From a phage, in the sequence record PV357171.2: a stretch of DNA of 64,000 nucleotides, one strand, 5' to 3'. Below the pieces are notes generated by a model that was given only the letters and a program-made list of their open reading frames with translations, was not told the origin of the DNA and did no database searches. Made by a program: the position numbers and the translations under genes. Positions 48,785-55,205 of this stretch are shown here, piece after piece (the stretch's first letter is position 1; every line of letters starts with the position of its first letter).

Positions 48785-49045
48785 CTACACATCTAGCTCA
48801 ACAATCTCCCAATCATCCGCTAGAGCTTCGTCTAGAGTTAATTCAACCTCTTCATCACTAGGCAGCAGCGTAGTATCTGAAGGCATCCACACATATTGGC
48901 GTACAGTATTGCTGTCTACATCAAATTTCAATAGTACAGTATACTCTTTATTATTTTCCCAGCTATCCCGCTGGAGATACTTTACATCTCCATCTTTAAG
49001 CAAGTCTGTTAGCTTACTCACGGCGTTTTCCTTTTTCTTTATCAA
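48785..49045 (-). CDS. hypothetical early protein (86 aa)
   Basis: ORF track. Confidence 0.35.
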   Translation of the reverse strand: MIKKKENAVSKLTDLLKDGDVKYLQRDSWENNKEYTVLLKFDVDSNTVRQYVWMPSDTTLLPSDEEVELTLDEALADDWEIVELDV

Positions 49046-49718
49046 GTTTCAGGGCAGCCTTAACAGCTTCGTTAATCAACGAAATTACTTCTTCCCGGGT
49101 CCATTTATACCCTAGAGATTTTACATCAACCCCCAGCTTTTCCAGATGTTTAACAGAGGCCAACTCGTAATTCATATAATGGACGTTCTGTTGTTTGCCT
49201 TCTGATAGGAGCCATACACGGTAACAACCAACAGGATTATCCATTGCTTTTTTGATTTCACCGATACACTGGTATCCAGGAACCCAAACAAGTTCACCAA
49301 CTGCAAATTCTTCTGCTACAGCATCATCAGGAATAATTGGAGGATTCAATGGATCTACAATATCGTTCAAACGAAGCAGAGCACCATATCGTTCCAGAAC
49401 AGATTTAACCATTGCTACAGAGCGGTAATTACGATCGGCAATTTCTTCAAAAGAATCACCAGATAAATACTGCTCAATAACGTTAGCTAACTCAATACCT
49501 TCAATGAGTGTGCCACGTTTCTTTTTCTTCATTTCGGCAACTTGAATCTGGCGGTCTTGCCATTCTTCAATCATCCTTTCCATAGTTGGATTGGATGATA
49601 CGCCGAGCATTTCACATGCTGCTTTCTTAGTACCACCGTTCTCCAGATGCTCTATAACTTTTTTAAAGACTTCATCCGGGATTTCATGGATATGTTTCTT
49701 TCTGCGAGAACCAGCCAT
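49014..49718 (-). CDS. early protein with N-terminal HTH-like region, transcribed from PN25-type promoter
   Basis: 234 aa; SD GAGAGAGGAG; first gene after promoter. Confidence 0.45.
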   Translation of the reverse strand: MAGSRRKKHIHEIPDEVFKKVIEHLENGGTKKAACEMLGVSSNPTMERMIEEWQDRQIQVAEMKKKKRGTLIEGIELANVIEQYLSGDSFEEIADRNYRSVAMVKSVLERYGALLRLNDIVDPLNPPIIPDDAVAEEFAVGELVWVPGYQCIGEIKKAMDNPVGCYRVWLLSEGKQQNVHYMNYELASVKHLEKLGVDVKSLGYKWTREEVISLINEAVKAALKLDKEKGKRRE

Positions 49719-49786: not shown

Positions 49787-50245
49787 TTAATTTGGATAGA
49801 GTTCGGACTTAAAATTAGCCCTAACTTTTTTAGCCTCTTCTATAGTATTGCACTGCTGGTACTTACGAATAGATCCTTTCTGCATTAGCACACAATATTT
49901 ATCGCCCCTCATGTAGATATTAGGCTCGCCCAACTTATTGTCTTTACGCACATTAATATTGTGCATTTGCTTAGATCTATTGGAGTCTTCTAAATTCTCT
50001 ATAAAGTTGCAATCTTTAATCCTGTTTTTGTGGTCTATCTCTTCTGGTATGTACCCCTTATGATATAAGAATACCAGCTGATGCTCTCCCCAGTGCCTAC
50101 GCTTAAACCCTATTCTTATATACCCTTTATGTTTACCCCCGGCAAACTTACCTACTAGACTCTTCTGTCTTGTTTTCTTCCATTTAAGATGGCCTGTTTC
50201 AGGATCATACTCAAAAGCCTCTCTAACCTCTTCCTGTGTTATCAT
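49787..50245 (-). CDS. HNH homing endonuclease
   Basis: YDPETGHLKW N-terminal motif; EIDHKNRIKDCNFIENL HNH core. Confidence 0.7.
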   Translation of the reverse strand: MITQEEVREAFEYDPETGHLKWKKTRQKSLVGKFAGGKHKGYIRIGFKRRHWGEHQLVFLYHKGYIPEEIDHKNRIKDCNFIENLEDSNRSKQMHNINVRKDNKLGEPNIYMRGDKYCVLMQKGSIRKYQQCNTIEEAKKVRANFKSELYPN

Positions 50246-50457: not shown

Positions 50458-53244
50458 TTATTCTTCACTGTCATTTCTAGCACCTAGCTCTGACATTGCT
50501 TCCTCGTGCATCTGACGTTCTTCCTCTGTCATGAATTTGAAAGGAATTGGCATACACTCGATTTTACAATAGGTTCTGTACCAGTCTACGATATTCTCCG
50601 TGTTCATATCTTTACCAATACCCATCATACCAAGATACATTCTAGCATATTTTGGGTTAGCACTCTGACCTGTTTTAAGGAAGAAATCTTTCTTCTTACC
50701 TTTCAGAGCTTCTATGAAAGGTTTGATAGTGACATTTGAACACTTCTTAATATCTTCCCAGAACATCTCATGCATCTTATGGAAGAATGCAGCTCGATCA
50801 TTCGGCTTATCTTTGATATATTGTTCAACATGCTCAACGGTTACATCTTTAATAGACTCCAGATGATAATAGCGAACAAGAAGTAGTTTAGCTTCATACG
50901 CATCCGCATGACGTGGAGCACAATAATCAGGAGTTGAGTGCAGAATAGCTTTGATTCGCTCTTCTGTATACTCTTTACCAGCACCTTCAATAGTTCCCCA
51001 GCTTTCACTGAAAATATCAATAGTTGCACCCTGATCAAGTAAGTAATAACGTAAAGTACTAGTATAGTTCCTAGATTCCAGCTCCCTGCGACGTGCGTAT
51101 AATTGCTGTGCTAACTCCAGCCAACCCTCATCAATATTATATTGTTCAGAACCTGCGGAGAATCCACTAGTGGATTTATCAATAAAATAATAGATATTCT
51201 GAGCACCACGGTCGCGCCTGATTGCTTGGAAACGCATGTTTGGCGCTTGATTACTGGTTCTAGTAATAACAAATACGTTATCAAAATAGTTGAAGTCAAC
51301 TCCACTCGTTACGGATGGACTACATAATAAGCAATCAATTTGTTGATCAATTAGCTCATTAGTTGTATAATCCAGAATACGTCGAATATCCACATCTGAG
51401 GTAGAGTTTGAATGGATTTCCTTAACTAACGCACCCGTATTACGACGCAGTGCCATACCCTTCTCATTCAGTTCATCCGGTCCACAGTCAGATACTAGGA
51501 TAGATTTTTCACCCATCTCTAGAGATGTCTGAAGTGCAACCCAAATACTGGATTCATCCGGGAACTCATAAGCATGAGCTTTTGATAGCATTTTACGGTG
51601 ATGATTATAGAATGCAACTGGTTTATCGAACTCAATCAAAGAACCATATGCTTCAATTGTTTCAGCACTAATATCACCATCTGATAGTATAATGATTTTT
51701 GCAGTTGCAAGAATATCACGAAGAACCTGAATACACTCACGACGTTGTTTAACAACCGGGGCGAATAATAGGTCATTCATTACTGCATCACATTCATCGA
51801 TAAAGATTGCATCAATTTGACCAATAAAACTCTTGAACTTATGCAAAGAGTGAATAGTTGTGGACATACGGTCAATAGCACCACGCTTAAAATTAAGCAT
51901 ATCTACAGACTTATCATATTGTCCTGCACTAAATTTCTTGGCATTTGAAGACACCAGTGCTCTAGTATTGGTAATTGCTAAGAAATTACCTTTAATAACT
52001 CCTGAATCCAGCCAACGAACAACAGCCGTTGTTTTACCTGTGCCTAGACTTGCTTTTACAAAAGTCATATAGCCTTCTGGTGGTACAGTATTTAATTTCA
52101 AGAAGTTGTCGGTCTCTAGTGAATTAGTTTCTAGCTTTTTAAGTGGAATACCTTTTAAAATATCCGGTATATCACGTTTAGAATTATTAACAAACGCTTT
52201 CAGAGCCTGCTTACGACCGTTGTTAAAGTAATCTTGAATATTACGACTATTATCTTTAGTTGCAATATATTCTGATAAGGCTGGACGGATTTCTTTTTCT
52301 AGCCATGCGAAGTCAACACCATCCTCTAAAGCTCTGTGATAGAGTTTAGGTATGATACGTAGGTACACTCCATCCTCAGCTTCTTCTAGTTCGCTGATAG
52401 TTTCCTCTACTTTATCAGAGGCAGCTTTTTTACCTTTAATTTGATCGAGTAAAGAGTAAAACTCCTCTTTAAACTCACCTCTAGTTGTTTCATAATCAAC
52501 TAGATTATTGGGTAAGTTTACCTTAGAACCCTTAACAAATACCAGACGTGAAGCACCCTCCGCTTTAAACGGATCTACTATACCATCATTAAATAACGGA
52601 TCTGCAAAATAATGGAGCTGTACGGAAGAGTAATAAGCTAAGTCGGCAATATCAAAGCCATACTTTTGTCTACTACTTTCGTTGATAGATGTAAATAAGA
52701 ATTTGATTTGACCCTGAGTCACTTTAATATTAGATTCTAGTATTAAGTGCATTCGGATACCTGGTTTTAGCCCGGCCGAAGACGATGCATGAGCGATAAA
52801 CCCTGCATCAAGAGGAAACATATCCTCACTAATACTATTTAACATTCTAATAATATGTCGAGCCATGCCAACAAGATCAAACTTGTTACAACCACCTGTA
52901 TCTACAATACCATCCACGTCCATTGCGATTATATGACTTGGGTTAGATACATTAAAGTTGCCCTTCTTACGTCGCACATTATTTTTAGGTGCAAGACATC
53001 GACCTCGTACCGCAACGATATGAGGGTCAGACGTTAAACGTCTCATAAGAGGAAGCATTTCTACTAGGGTTTGAGGATCAACTTCATCAATTACATCAAA
53101 CTTGAAGGGCATTGAAGCTGGTTTACCTTCAGGATGCTTTGAGGAAAATCTTTTAGCAAAAAGATAATCTTCTGCTTTAACTTCTCGCCAATTACCTGTG
53201 GCTAAATCGCGATGAAATCCTGCATGACCTTGTAGGATTGAGAA
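50458..53244 (-). CDS. putative replication initiation / origin-binding helicase-like protein; start trimmed to GTG with SD AGGAG
   Basis: Walker A GTGKT and Walker B IFIDECD in central region; ~930 aa; track ORF start (TTG 53325) lacks RBS. Confidence 0.5.
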   Translation of the reverse strand, partial: FSILQGHAGFHRDLATGNWREVKAEDYLFAKRFSSKHPEGKPASMPFKFDVIDEVDPQTLVEMLPLMRRLTSDPHIVAVRGRCLAPKNNVRRKKGNFNVSNPSHIIAMDVDGIVDTGGCNKFDLVGMARHIIRMLNSISEDMFPLDAGFIAHASSSAGLKPGIRMHLILESNIKVTQGQIKFLFTSINESSRQKYGFDIADLAYYSSVQLHYFADPLFNDGIVDPFKAEGASRLVFVKGSKVNLPNNLVDYETTRGEFKEEFYSLLDQIKGKKAASDKVEETISELEEAEDGVYLRIIPKLYHRALEDGVDFAWLEKEIRPALSEYIATKDNSRNIQDYFNNGRKQALKAFVNNSKRDIPDILKGIPLKKLETNSLETDNFLKLNTVPPEGYMTFVKASLGTGKTTAVVRWLDSGVIKGNFLAITNTRALVSSNAKKFSAGQYDKSVDMLNFKRGAIDRMSTTIHSLHKFKSFIGQIDAIFIDECDAVMNDLLFAPVVKQRRECIQVLRDILATAKIIILSDGDISAETIEAYGSLIEFDKPVAFYNHHRKMLSKAHAYEFPDESSIWVALQTSLEMGEKSILVSDCGPDELNEKGMALRRNTGALVKEIHSNSTSDVDIRRILDYTTNELIDQQIDCLLCSPSVTSGVDFNYFDNVFVITRTSNQAPNMRFQAIRRDRGAQNIYYFIDKSTSGFSAGSEQYNIDEGWLELAQQLYARRRELESRNYTSTLRYYLLDQGATIDIFSESWGTIEGAGKEYTEERIKAILHSTPDYCAPRHADAYEAKLLLVRYYHLESIKDVTVEHVEQYIKDKPNDRAAFFHKMHEMFWEDIKKCSNVTIKPFIEALKGKKKDFFLKTGQSANPKYARMYLGMMGIGKDMNTENIVDWYRTYCKIECMPIPFKFMTEEERQMHEEAMSELGARNDSEE

Positions 53245-53782
53245 CACAACAATACTCCTGTGTTGGAAATGAAATAAGTTTTCTTTAGGACTATTCAGAA
53301 AGAATAGAACAACTGTTACTGTCAATTTCTCAACAAATTAATCGCAAATACTGAAGTGGGGTGGCAACTTCCACTTTCACGCTACACTGCCGCTTCACTA
53401 TACCGCACAAATCCTTGAGGATGGCCGCTAAGCCAGATTTGCTCACCTAATGCTTCATGTACTAGCTCATACTAGATGCAGTATACCTTACGTCATCACT
53501 TCTCAGAGTTTTTCACTCTTCCCGTCTCACTTCACAACCACCTCACACTAGGTTGCTTCGAGGCCTTACCAGGGTTCCTACGGGGTGTAGATCGCTAAGT
53601 ATTCTATTAACTATTTGTTTAAAAACTAACACGTAACAGTTAAAACAACCCTTAATGGGGCAGCCTAACTGTTCCGTATCGCGGATTGTAAACAAGAAAA
53701 ATTAGCAAAATCAGTTTTTACTAATGTCTCTCAATTATGGGAATATTATACTATAAAATAATACTCCCTTGCAAATGAAATT

Positions 53783-54238
53783 TTACTGGATTGATTCCCT
53801 ACCGTATAATTGACCTCTAAACATCTTGGCCATAGAACATGCAACCTCATAGTTATCATATGTTCCTTTAACTATACGTTTACGGTTAATAGTAAATACT
53901 ACTTGCCAGTTCTTACTACCAGAAGGGTAAACATGCATTCCTTTCTTATACTTGATATTTCTTAGATTACCGGATACTGTCTGCTCTCTAAGATTTTCAA
54001 TACGATCATCACCTTTTACAGTATTCACATGATCTACTAAATCAGGTAAGTATCCGTGATGCATTAAGAAGATAGCTCTGTGTCGGAGCATAGTTCTACT
54101 CCCTAGAGAAATACGGTAATAACCATTTCCCGTTGAAACACAACATTCCTTGCCTGCATTTCTTCCTGTAGTTCTAAATAATTTTCCATCTTCATATCGG
54201 AAATTATCTAAAAGTTCCTGTTGTGTGAGCGACATCTT
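53783..54238 (-). CDS. HNH homing endonuclease; start trimmed to ATG with SD GGAGG
   Basis: DLVDHVNTVKGDDRIENL HNH core. Confidence 0.65.
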   Translation of the reverse strand, partial: KMSLTQQELLDNFRYEDGKLFRTTGRNAGKECCVSTGNGYYRISLGSRTMLRHRAIFLMHHGYLPDLVDHVNTVKGDDRIENLREQTVSGNLRNIKYKKGMHVYPSGSKNWQVVFTINRKRIVKGTYDNYEVACSMAKMFRGQLYGRESIQ

Positions 54239-54374
54239 TACCTCCAATACATATATTATTACATAATCCACCCAATTTGTCAATGACAATTTATTCATAC
54301 TGTCAATTAACTGGAAAGATTATATAATAATCCGAGCCAAAATGACTCGGTAGTCAGAGTTCAGCTAATAAAAA

Positions 54375-54767
54375 TCATTCATCATTCAGACCTGGAACAT
54401 AGATCCCAACATGGTTTAACTGTTCTTTAGCTTCTTTGAGAATATCTGGAGTGTACTCCCAAATATCATCTTCCACCTGTAAAAGATGGGGCGAACAACC
54501 ATCATCAGGCATACGACATATAGCCAAACCACGTGGATGGAACAAAGAGAAATTTAGGGCAACAATTAAACCCATAGCAGACAACTCATTCCAATCCAAT
54601 TCCCATTCCCTAGCGTAGCCTGATAGGAAAACACCAATACAGGGATCGTCTATTTGCTGCTCCGGAAAAGTGAAGGAGGCTTGTCTTACCCCCAACCAAC
54701 GTTGTAGCAGCTTCTCCGCACGCTTCACCAAACTAGGATCAATCTGACGCCAATATACTTGTTCCAT
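54375..54767 (-). CDS. hypothetical protein, member 2 of tandem paralog pair
   Basis: Shares PCIG...MGL.(V/F)ALN...LF.P motif block with 54777..55205. Confidence 0.45.
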   Translation of the reverse strand: MEQVYWRQIDPSLVKRAEKLLQRWLGVRQASFTFPEQQIDDPCIGVFLSGYAREWELDWNELSAMGLIVALNFSLFHPRGLAICRMPDDGCSPHLLQVEDDIWEYTPDILKEAKEQLNHVGIYVPGLNDE

Positions 54768-54776
54768 TCTGCCTCC

Positions 54777-55205
54777 TTAAGCAGTTAAATCTGGGATCAT
54801 ATACCCGAAACGTCGAAGTTTCTGAATCCCCTCATTTACTTCTTCCGGTGAATAAGACCAACCATAACGTTCATTAACCTGAAAACCAGGAGATTCACTA
54901 GTTTTATAGTTAACAACTAGGCGATGCTTAGCAGGCATAAACAGCTTATAATTTAACGCAAAAACTAAGCCCATTTCATCTAACTCTTTCCAGCCTACAA
55001 TCTCTTCAAGACCCTCCTCTACCTGAACAATTAAACCAATACAGGGGGCCTCATCAATATCATCTTTAAAAGCAAAGGAGATTTCATTATTCTCACACCA
55101 TATTTTCAAGGAGTTAATAGCCTCATTATACAGGCTAGCTGGGAGAGTACGCCAAAAGTTAATCAAAATTGGATTAGCTTCTTTAGAGAATACATTATTG
55201 AACAT
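54777..55205 (-). CDS. hypothetical protein, member 1 of tandem paralog pair
   Basis: See above. Confidence 0.45.
   Translation of the reverse strand: MFNNVFSKEANPILINFWRTLPASLYNEAINSLKIWCENNEISFAFKDDIDEAPCIGLIVQVEEGLEEIVGWKELDEMGLVFALNYKLFMPAKHRLVVNYKTSESPGFQVNERYGWSYSPEEVNEGIQKLRRFGYMIPDLTA

Follow-up and report, generated by a model that had tools for sequence, protein, structure and literature searches.

The noncoding segment that precedes the helicase gene of T5-like phages encodes a conserved, highly structured RNA with a predicted length of approximately 490 nt. Comparison of its sequence across related phages shows that the secondary structure resides in the sense strand, and that the predicted architecture consists of a hairpin at the 5' end, an island of 25 nt that is nearly invariant, a long-range stalk of 28–40 bp, and a core of 206–214 nt organized into two three-way sub-domains. 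We favor the interpretation that this RNA is a cis-acting structured leader, transcribed from a T5 early promoter, that controls expression of the helicase gene; we give this reading a probability of roughly one half. We file the RNA as a new family of a known general kind, that of large structured leaders or noncoding RNAs.

T5 is a classic model phage, and few coliphages or Salmonella phages are isolated as often as its relatives are. The segment is present in more than 440 sequenced genomes, yet annotations either leave it blank or wrongly assign small proteins to it. Bacteria and phages have few conserved structured RNAs of this size, and every one discovered to date has given rise to a line of research. 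The RNA described here sits at the entrance of a presumed replication-initiator gene, near the T5 origins placed by old electron-microscopy work, and may hold the key to the control or the start of T5 replication. Its core occurs as two ancient alleles, which provide a natural swap experiment. If the reading as a replication RNA is true, the long-unmapped central origin of T5 becomes directly testable.

The locus, its neighboring genes, and its promoter

The DNA analyzed, referred to here as the window, is a stretch of 64,000 nt from sequence record PV357171.2. Its source is a T5-like phage of the genus Tequintavirus, and the local genes lie on the minus strand. Over the 701 bases around the segment, the closest relative is Escherichia phage vB_EcoS_MM-1 (Tequintavirus), with 99% identity; the region has matches in 447 phage records. 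The features of the locus are as follows.

50458–53247, minus strand: helicase gene, T5.108, "origin-binding protein" (OBP), 929 aa, with its GTG start codon at 53247–53245
53259–53255, minus strand: Shine–Dalgarno (SD) sequence AGGAG, eight bases upstream of GTG 53247; the annotated starts of relatives agree
53738, minus strand: predicted transcription start, an A, 7 nt past the −10 hexamer, placed by analogy with T5 PN25
53774–53745, minus strand: sigma-70 type T5 early promoter, with −35 TTGCAA at 53774–53769, an 18-nt spacer, and −10 TATAAT at 53750–53745; 10 of 12 consensus matches
53783–54235, minus strand: HNH_3 homing-endonuclease gene, 150 aa, outside the RNA element (Pfam HNH_3, E = 2.5e-11)

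A first-pass annotation, made from the letters of the window alone, had drawn attention to 53326–53782 as a segment without open reading frames (ORFs) of 60 codons or more. None is present on either strand, the largest being of 50, 40, 38, 37, and 33 aa. The upper limit of that segment holds; the lower limit does not, and with the helicase start at GTG 53247 the true noncoding interval becomes 53248–53782, that is, 535 nt from the HNH_3 endonuclease gene to the helicase GTG. The TTG at 53325, which opens a listed ORF of 955 aa, is rejected as a start and is a mechanical artefact: GTG 53247 has the AGGAG sequence and is the annotated start in every relative fetched. The high GC content ascribed to the segment is a property of the core (53340–53600; 0.483, 98th percentile of the window) and not of the segment as a whole (0.40, 61st percentile). 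The minus strand is indeed G-rich (GC skew approximately −0.23), but flanking minus-strand genes have an equal skew and the feature is not distinctive. The short CACTTC and CTCAC motifs pointed out at that stage are present, in 2 and 3 copies, but form no repeat family; the shorter CACT occurs 7 times against 2.4 expected (P approximately 0.01). Finally, the position between a replication gene and an HNH gene is correct for the window, but the HNH gene is an optional insertion that most relatives fetched do not have.

The product of T5.108 joins a primase-like domain to an SF2 helicase. Pfam Herpes_ori_bp matches residues 394–533 of the OBP helicase, and the N-terminal region carries invariant D..D and H residues (AEP-like DxD...H) that are typical of AEP primases. 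The protein is the bipolar helicase "D2" characterized by Wong et al. 2013 (PMC3632103). In some GenBank-derived tables, the name D2 is given to a different protein of 234 aa.

On the other side of the segment, the HNH gene behaves as a cassette. It is present in MM-1, ECOP18, and AKFV33, and all HNH-less relatives fetched still carry the RNA element; for the leaders L021 and L032, HNH presence was judged by the ATTCCCAT signature alone. The 3' end of the cassette carries the promoter version found in HNH-positive phages. The gene upstream of the segment has its own stop codon and terminator. A group I intron with an associated HNH gene was considered as an identity for the segment and rejected: there is no match to an intron-core covariance model and no split host gene, and HNH is optional. 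The helicase gene has its own SD sequence and GTG, and relatives that lack HNH keep the full leader, both of which count against an intron.

The promoter is conserved in all relatives and is annotated at the same site in AKFV33 and in T5 (NC_005859, 58999–59073). By analogy with T5 PN25, whose start context we take to be TATAAT-AGATTC-A, the RNA should start near 53738. Because no terminator is predicted from the promoter to the GTG start, we infer that the transcript runs for approximately 490 nt and then reads through into the helicase gene. The plus strand of 53250–53740 has no promoter-like site and thus no antisense promoter. A second consensus-like promoter lies 70–100 nt upstream of the start codon in 2 of the sequence groups defined below (D and G). 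The T5 record annotates a terminator, the promoter, and then nothing up to T5.108; the T5 leader occupies 59.05–59.54 kb of 121.75 kb, at 48.5% of the genome.

Evidence for a fold in the sense strand

Leaders were collected from GenBank phages and IMG/VR, giving a set of 49 (44 unique) that falls into seven sequence groups: A (the window and others), B (T5, EPS7, and others), C (Klebsiella phages), D (Pectobacterium phage DU_PP_V), E (Providencia phages), F (L046), and G (L047/L048). Covariation was counted for 56 pairs in eight helices, a structure partly derived from the same sequences, in 35 leaders aligned with MAFFT and not fitted to any structure: 97.8% of cells are paired (39.5–50.8% when partners are slid by 1–3 columns), 25 of the 56 pairs are changed on both sides (6–10 when slid), and the covariation score is 0.297 (at most 0.079 when slid). 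Not one of 500 shuffles reached any of the observed measures.

The same alignment identifies the folded strand. Cells with G·U or U·G number 421, against 9 with A·C or C·A; it is therefore the sense strand, the minus strand of the window, that folds. This asymmetry fits RNA and rules out a symmetric cruciform in duplex DNA. It weighs on the reading of the segment as a DNA-level element, either a cruciform or single-stranded DNA folded into an initiation signal for the primase domain, a reading that we consider very improbable. Long inverted repeats do flank the core, compensatory changes would preserve a DNA fold as well as an RNA fold, and G·T would be tolerated in a folded sense single strand as G·U is in RNA. 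However, the start of the element coincides exactly with a strong promoter and its orientation is that of the gene, and its 490 nt contrast with known single-strand initiation signals, which are hairpins of approximately 40–100 nt.

Independent folding of the groups leads to the same structure. RNAalifold, applied to groups A, D, and F, predicts approximately 25 helices, many of them with compensatory changes. When the cores of groups A, B, C, D, and F are folded separately, they adopt near-identical shapes, [[[][]][][[][]]], over 206–214 nt, despite an identity of 51–55%, and the helices of these separate folds have matching positions and differing sequences. Thus helix H5 is read as CUACAC/GUGUAG, CUGUGU/GCACAG, or CUAGAA/UUCUAG (the group C pairing was read by eye from the alignment), and helix II as GGUAUACU../..GGUAUAGU, GUACAG/CUGUAU, GUAGCAAC/GUUGUGC, or CCUCAAUU/GAUUGAGG. 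The z-scores of the minimum free energy (MFE) are modest, from −0.5 to −5.3, and the sense strand is more stable than the antisense strand in every case. The parts of the predicted RNA, in the order in which they would be transcribed, are listed here.

53691–53736, minus strand: P1, the 5' hairpin, with outer stem GAGAGA/UUUUUC and inner stem AUUAGUAAAA/UUUUGCUAAU
53655–53679, minus strand: near-invariant island AUACGGAACAGUUAGGCUGCCCCAU, formed of invariant alignment columns and unique in the window
53594–53641, minus strand: 5' arm of the stalk, starting with AACUGUUAC at 53641–53633, a perfect 9-bp inverted repeat with 53311–53319
53379–53595, minus strand: central core, closed by H5 (CUACAC 53590–53585 with GUGUAG 53387–53382)
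53584–53521, minus strand: core sub-domain I
53519–53505, minus strand: core middle hairpin
53504–53497, minus strand: conserved GAGAAGUG in the core
53494–53388, minus strand: core sub-domain II
53407–53442, minus strand: helix IIb, GCAAAUCU/GGAUUUGU, with capping hairpin GGCU-UAGC-GGCC at 53434–53423
53311–53379, minus strand: 3' arm of the stalk, ending with GUAACAGUU at 53319–53311; a side hairpin with loop GUUGCCACCCC lies at 53375–53354
53291–53307, minus strand: hairpin or palindrome CUAUUC-UUUCU-GAAUAG, just upstream of the ribosome-binding site

The contribution of covariation differs from part to part. P1 (helices 1 and 2) has 96–98% of its cells paired and 5 pairs with double changes, and it also appears in the structure of R1, a covariance model of the 5' domain. 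Helices 3 and 4, in the island region, scarcely vary, and covariation there is uninformative either way; GGAAC of the island (53675–53671) can pair with GUUCU (53310–53306), and a small hairpin then extends to 53644. The stalk is formed by 28–40 base pairs between arms that lie approximately 215 nt apart, in every group, and 5 pairs of its helix 5 have double changes. The stem of the side hairpin in the 3' arm covaries as well (GUGG/CCAC, GAGG/CCUC, AAGGG/CCCUU, and AUAUGA/UCAUAU, read from the alignment). Within the core, double changes affect 6 pairs of H5 (helix 6) and 7 of the 8 pairs of helix 7, which together with helix 8 makes up helix IIb. The CUUAGCGG sequence in the hairpin of helix IIb is invariant; the motif occurs in all seven groups, including the Providencia phage and L047, and is unique in the window.

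Close to the gene, the hairpin upstream of the ribosome-binding site is kept with other sequences in a Klebsiella phage (CUAUC/GAUAG) and in a Pectobacterium phage (CUUUCC/GGAAAG); since it has no G·U pairs, an RNA hairpin and a DNA operator are indistinguishable for this element. A local hairpin, ACGGAACAGUUA/UAACUGUUACGU, was rejected as a conserved pairing, as types B and D compensate for the long-range partner instead.

Taken with the architecture kept across sequence-divergent relatives, the covariation and the G·U strand asymmetry strongly support the structured noncoding RNA that had been named as one candidate for the segment. The comparison with related phages that had been put forward as a check found both conservation and covariation (the alignment of 35 leaders; relatives from at least 4 genera). 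Another of the original candidates, a decayed gene, has not survived, and the probability that the segment holds either a decayed gene or several small protein genes is next to nil. Two ORFs of 153 nt and 117 nt (50 aa and 38 aa) are annotated as proteins in MM-1 and GEC_vB_N5. However, ORF lengths vary even within group A, none occupies those positions in groups B to G, and in some members of group B no sense ORF reaches 25 aa; no ORF is kept between or within groups. Pfam is empty for both the 50-aa and the 38-aa ORF, substitutions track base-pairing rather than codons, and length and fold are conserved across genera.

Searches for known identities were negative. Rfam 15 has no match in the whole window at gathering thresholds, and yields only sub-threshold chance matches (E at most 10) in 53000–54900; across nine relatives there is nothing at E of 1 or below. 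The Rfam/Infernal scan suggested in the first-pass annotation thus returned no known family in the window or in these relatives. ARAGORN reports no tRNA or tmRNA gene in the window, in agreement with the earlier failure to recognize a tRNA cloverleaf by eye. RNase P RNA was considered on account of ACAGAAC..GGCU and GGCUUAxCGG, which resemble conserved regions of that RNA; these short resemblances do not follow the order found there, none of the RNase P models gives a score, and we treat them as chance. The literature searched contains no description of this RNA, and the T5 reference genome has no annotation here.

Conservation and the two core alleles

All of the T5-like Enterobacterales relatives fetched have 600–700 nt without annotation ahead of the helicase gene, whether HNH is present or not. 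The genera that bear the gap are Tequintavirus, Epseptimavirus, Sugarlandvirus, Hongcheonvirus, and Priunavirus, with examples in T5, EPS7, a Klebsiella Sugarlandvirus, a Pectobacterium Hongcheonvirus, and a Providencia Priunavirus. Leader length is nearly constant, at 477–503 nt in groups A, B, C, D, and F. A helicase gene lies downstream of all 49 leaders and of all true motif matches with the helicase on the fetched DNA. The element is single copy in each genome and is found only beside the helicase gene, and its conserved motifs occur once in the window.

Conservation along the leader is uneven. Between groups A and B, the first approximately 110 nt are 89–100% identical and the last approximately 75 nt are 80–100% identical, whereas the middle 310 nt are only 51–55% identical. 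Within one type, the middle is 84–100% identical, even across genera whose helicase genes are 81–86% identical. We conclude from this pattern that the core comes in two ancient alleles, which have been exchanged between lineages and genera. Type A leaders are paired with divergent helicase 5' ends in L005 and L027; the core allele is thus not locked to the helicase N-terminus and recombines independently of it. On a finer scale, islands that are unchanged in nearly all groups, namely AUACGGAACAGUU(A/C)GGCUGCCCCAU, CUUAGCGG, GAGAAGUG, and GUUGCCACCCC, alternate with segments that are approximately 50% identical but have the same fold.

The distribution of the element is narrow. Across the public collections, metagenomes, and bacterial genomes scanned, the combination of the 20-nt island with TTAGCGG 248–249 nt downstream occurs in T5-like contigs only; bacterial-genome matches to the 20-nt island come without the second motif and are at chance level. 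Family members that infect Vibrio and Aeromonas have upstream regions of 0.7–1.3 kb with no annotated genes or small doubtful ones. The R1 model matches the window's own copy and close relatives only; the Providencia, L047, Vibrio, and Aeromonas loci gave no match.

Possible functions and relation to known systems

Plasmid and phage replication-initiator genes are commonly controlled through structured leaders. The T5 element lies on the same strand as the helicase gene, is contiguous with it, and ends at its SD sequence and GTG. In the explanation that we favor, the leader would act in cis and set the amount or the timing of helicase synthesis. The stalk would bring the 5' island beside the region just upstream of the ribosome-binding site, and the folded core would offer a platform on which a phage or host factor could bind. 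Long duplexes such as the stalk, of approximately 40 bp, are of the kind cut by RNase III, so the stalk is a plausible substrate for this enzyme, and cleavage might alter the stability or translation of the mRNA. More direct interplay with the ribosome is conceivable: a pyrimidine tract at RNA positions 47–53 can form 7 bp with the SD region at 484–490 in groups A–D, a match between pyrimidine and purine tracts that competes with P1. Since this anti-SD tract doubles as the 3' strand of P1, occlusion of the SD sequence is probably not the ground state.

Three observations disfavor a purely cis role. The approximately 25 helices far exceed the needs of known translational operators, second promoters lie beside the start codon in groups D and G, and the core alleles exchange freely between lineages. 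The recombination of core alleles independently of the helicase N-terminus is not predicted by a simple autoregulatory RNA–protein pair. The modest MFE z-scores also count against the favored explanation.

These features lend weight to two rival explanations. In one of them, a cut in the stalk, perhaps made by RNase III, would free the core or the whole leader to act in trans as an independent noncoding RNA. It might serve as a ribonucleoprotein scaffold, act as a decoy or against host defences, sense a ligand, or be catalytic, and the leader position would only provide early expression. The size and complexity of the element are within the range of the rare large structured RNAs, and a stalk of 28–40 bp would be a typical substrate for processing of double-stranded RNA. 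The invariance of CUUAGCGG, GUUGCCACCCC, GAGAAGUG, and the 25-nt island among phages that infect different hosts suggests a conserved partner. The exchange of two core alleles between genera is a pattern common in host-interacting modules. In addition, the second promoters beside the helicase start in groups D and G could allow the helicase to be expressed without the leader, which favors an independent role for the RNA. On the other hand, no terminator or recognizable processing signal is predicted, and the element is never found away from the helicase gene. On balance, we regard a released, trans-acting RNA as unlikely.

A third explanation places the RNA in the initiation of replication itself. 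As an origin or pre-primer transcript, the folded RNA would form a persistent RNA–DNA hybrid or open adjacent AT-rich DNA and thereby start T5 replication, on the model of ColE1 RNA II or of the R-loop origins ori(uvsY) and ori(34) of T4. Several lines of evidence are consistent with this idea. The element is directly upstream of a gene whose product has Herpes_ori_bp and an AEP-like DxD...H N-terminus; a strong promoter would drive a structured RNA of approximately 0.5 kb, the size of RNA II; and several 40-nt stretches of at least 75% AT flank the core. ColE1-type primer RNAs have incompatibility variants, which the discrete core alleles recall. In position, too, the T5 leader at 48.5% of the genome agrees with the replication origins of T5, which according to Davison (10.1101/866236) map near the centre of the molecule. 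This match is weak, however, since the entire replication gene cluster lies near the centre. The locus also offers few of the usual marks of an origin: repeat families in the window, in T5, and in the Pectobacterium phage are only two-copy and of low identity, and do not qualify as iterons; every DnaA box at the locus has at least one mismatch; GC skew does not switch there; and there is no antisense promoter of the RNA I kind. A transcript-dependent origin is possible, at odds that we consider low. The broader proposal that this is a new class of large (approximately 0.5 kb) phage RNA directly involved in the start of T5 replication, whether as a pre-primer, as an R-loop transcript, or by partnering the primase-helicase, with the core alleles as specificity variants, is likewise tentative, and we think it will probably prove wrong.

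Comparison with known systems sets these explanations in context. ColE1 RNA II and the T4 origins ori(uvsY) and ori(34) resemble the T5 element in that a promoter drives a folded transcript of approximately 0.5 kb beside replication functions, and divergent variants keep the fold. In contrast to these, the T5 RNA has no antisense RNA I promoter, enters a protein-coding gene, and displays no similarity in sequence or by covariance model; its role at an origin is putative.

For the cis-acting leader, the closest parallels are the structured leaders of plasmid initiator mRNAs (R1 repA with CopT, and the repA pseudoknot of IncB and IncI-alpha plasmids) and phage translational operators (T4 genes 32, 43, and regA targets). 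Both kinds share with the T5 leader a structured RNA that is linked in cis and placed directly upstream of a replication-protein gene, with possible SD interplay. These plasmid initiator leaders and T4 operators span tens to a few hundred nt, have 1–3 helices, and act with a known antisense RNA or protein partner, whereas the T5 leader has approximately 25 helices and no antisense promoter.

In size, number of covarying helices, and association with phages, the element is reminiscent of ROOL, GOLLD, OLE, HEARO/omega RNA, and raiA, which are approximately 0.5 kb long and whose functions are unknown or only recently emerging. Unlike them, it has a different architecture, is confined to T5-like phages, and is embedded as an mRNA leader instead of being free-standing.

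Group I introns with HNH genes offer a likeness in layout, as an HNH gene adjoins a structured noncoding stretch inside a phage replication module; the T5 RNA differs in having no detected intron core and no split gene, and it is present in every T5-like Enterobacterales relative examined, with HNH optional. Finally, the RNase III sites of T7 early mRNA share with the T5 element a long imperfect duplex, in early polycistronic RNA or in a leader, whose cutting could shape the ends of the mRNA. The T7 sites are local hairpins of approximately 60 nt, whereas the duplex of the T5 stalk closes a domain of approximately 330 nt.

HNH_3 cassette, leader promoter, and an optional insert

The optional HNH_3 cassette (gene at 53783-54235, minus strand) sits between the terminator of the upstream gene (54350-54332) on one side and, on the other, the leader, the predicted structured RNA that precedes the 929-aa helicase gene. 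The cassette comes with a leader promoter variant of its own. Two variable features of the leader's 5' end are considered here, with L-numbers denoting loci collected from relatives:

53745-54298, minus strand: HNH_3 cassette region and leader promoter (L003, L021, and L032 compared with HNH-less loci)
L006:1556-1650 (also L007, L025, L038, and L051), equivalent to window ~53694: optional ~89-nt insert

Five leaders, those of the window, its closest relative MM-1, AKFV33, L021, and L032, share ...TATAATATTCCCATAA(A/T)TGAGAG, whereas the corresponding sequence in relatives without the HNH gene is ...TATAATATTTATATTGAATTGAGAG; the gene is confirmed for the window, MM-1, and AKFV33, and L021 and L032 are grouped by leader sequence alone. 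Judged from this sequence difference, the boundary of cassette insertion or co-conversion is placed inside the first ~10 nt of the transcript. Both ancient alleles of the leader core, type A and type B, are found together with the cassette.

Type A and type B backgrounds likewise both carry the ~89-nt insert, which lies directly after the 5' hairpin P1 and is flanked on both sides by the 8-nt direct repeat TTTTTCTT. It occurs in 51 phage records, always as a single copy at the identical site, and is not annotated in them. A comparison with Rfam gave no match for the insert, and its fold z-score is only -0.8.

Small open reading frames and a second promoter

Additional elements have been annotated or detected within or near the leaders of relatives:

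L001:1705-1857 and 1954-2070; L002:1558-1710 and 1807-1923: 50-aa and 38-aa ORFs annotated as proteins (GenBank records MM-1 and GEC_vB_N5)
L011:1400-1436 (Pectobacterium phage); L047:~1405-1435: second consensus-like sigma-70 promoter

The ORF annotations are probably gene-caller artefacts; in these records, one leader ORF is even labelled "putative replication origin-binding protein." In L011 and L047, the second promoter precedes the helicase start by 70-100 nt; that of L011 falls within the 3' strand of the long-range duplex that closes the core (the stalk). At this position, the window has a TTGACA but no usable -10.

Genes around the helicase

49787-50245, minus strand: second HNH_3 endonuclease gene, 152 aa (HNH_3, E = 2.3e-10)
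54375-54767 and 54777-55205, minus strand: two neighbouring paralogues with products of 130 and 142 aa, homologous to T5.107 and T5.106

The helicase gene is followed by an 86-aa ORF and, directly downstream, the second HNH_3 gene; two genes of the homing-endonuclease type thus flank the helicase gene, one on either side. Each of the T5.107 and T5.106 homologues contains two DUF7415 repeats. The name "D2" denotes the 929-aa helicase in PMC3632103, whereas in GenBank-derived tables it denotes a different, 234-aa HTH-like protein, a homologue of which is encoded at 49014-49718.

Upstream regions in Vibrio and Aeromonas Demerecviridae

L013:330-1428; L014:770-1500; L015:660-1371; L016:1-1308: 0.7-1.3 kb regions ahead of the helicase gene

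These regions hold no annotated genes, or just small doubtful ones. Measured over ORF-free parts, 3 of the 5 Vibrio loci are rich in purines (57-58%), and 2 of these have a GC content of 46-47%. The covariance model of the enteric leader's 5' domain found no match in the Vibrio and Aeromonas regions. Several of them begin with a promoter, then a hairpin, then an AUACGC motif at ~+60, an order that resembles the enteric leader.
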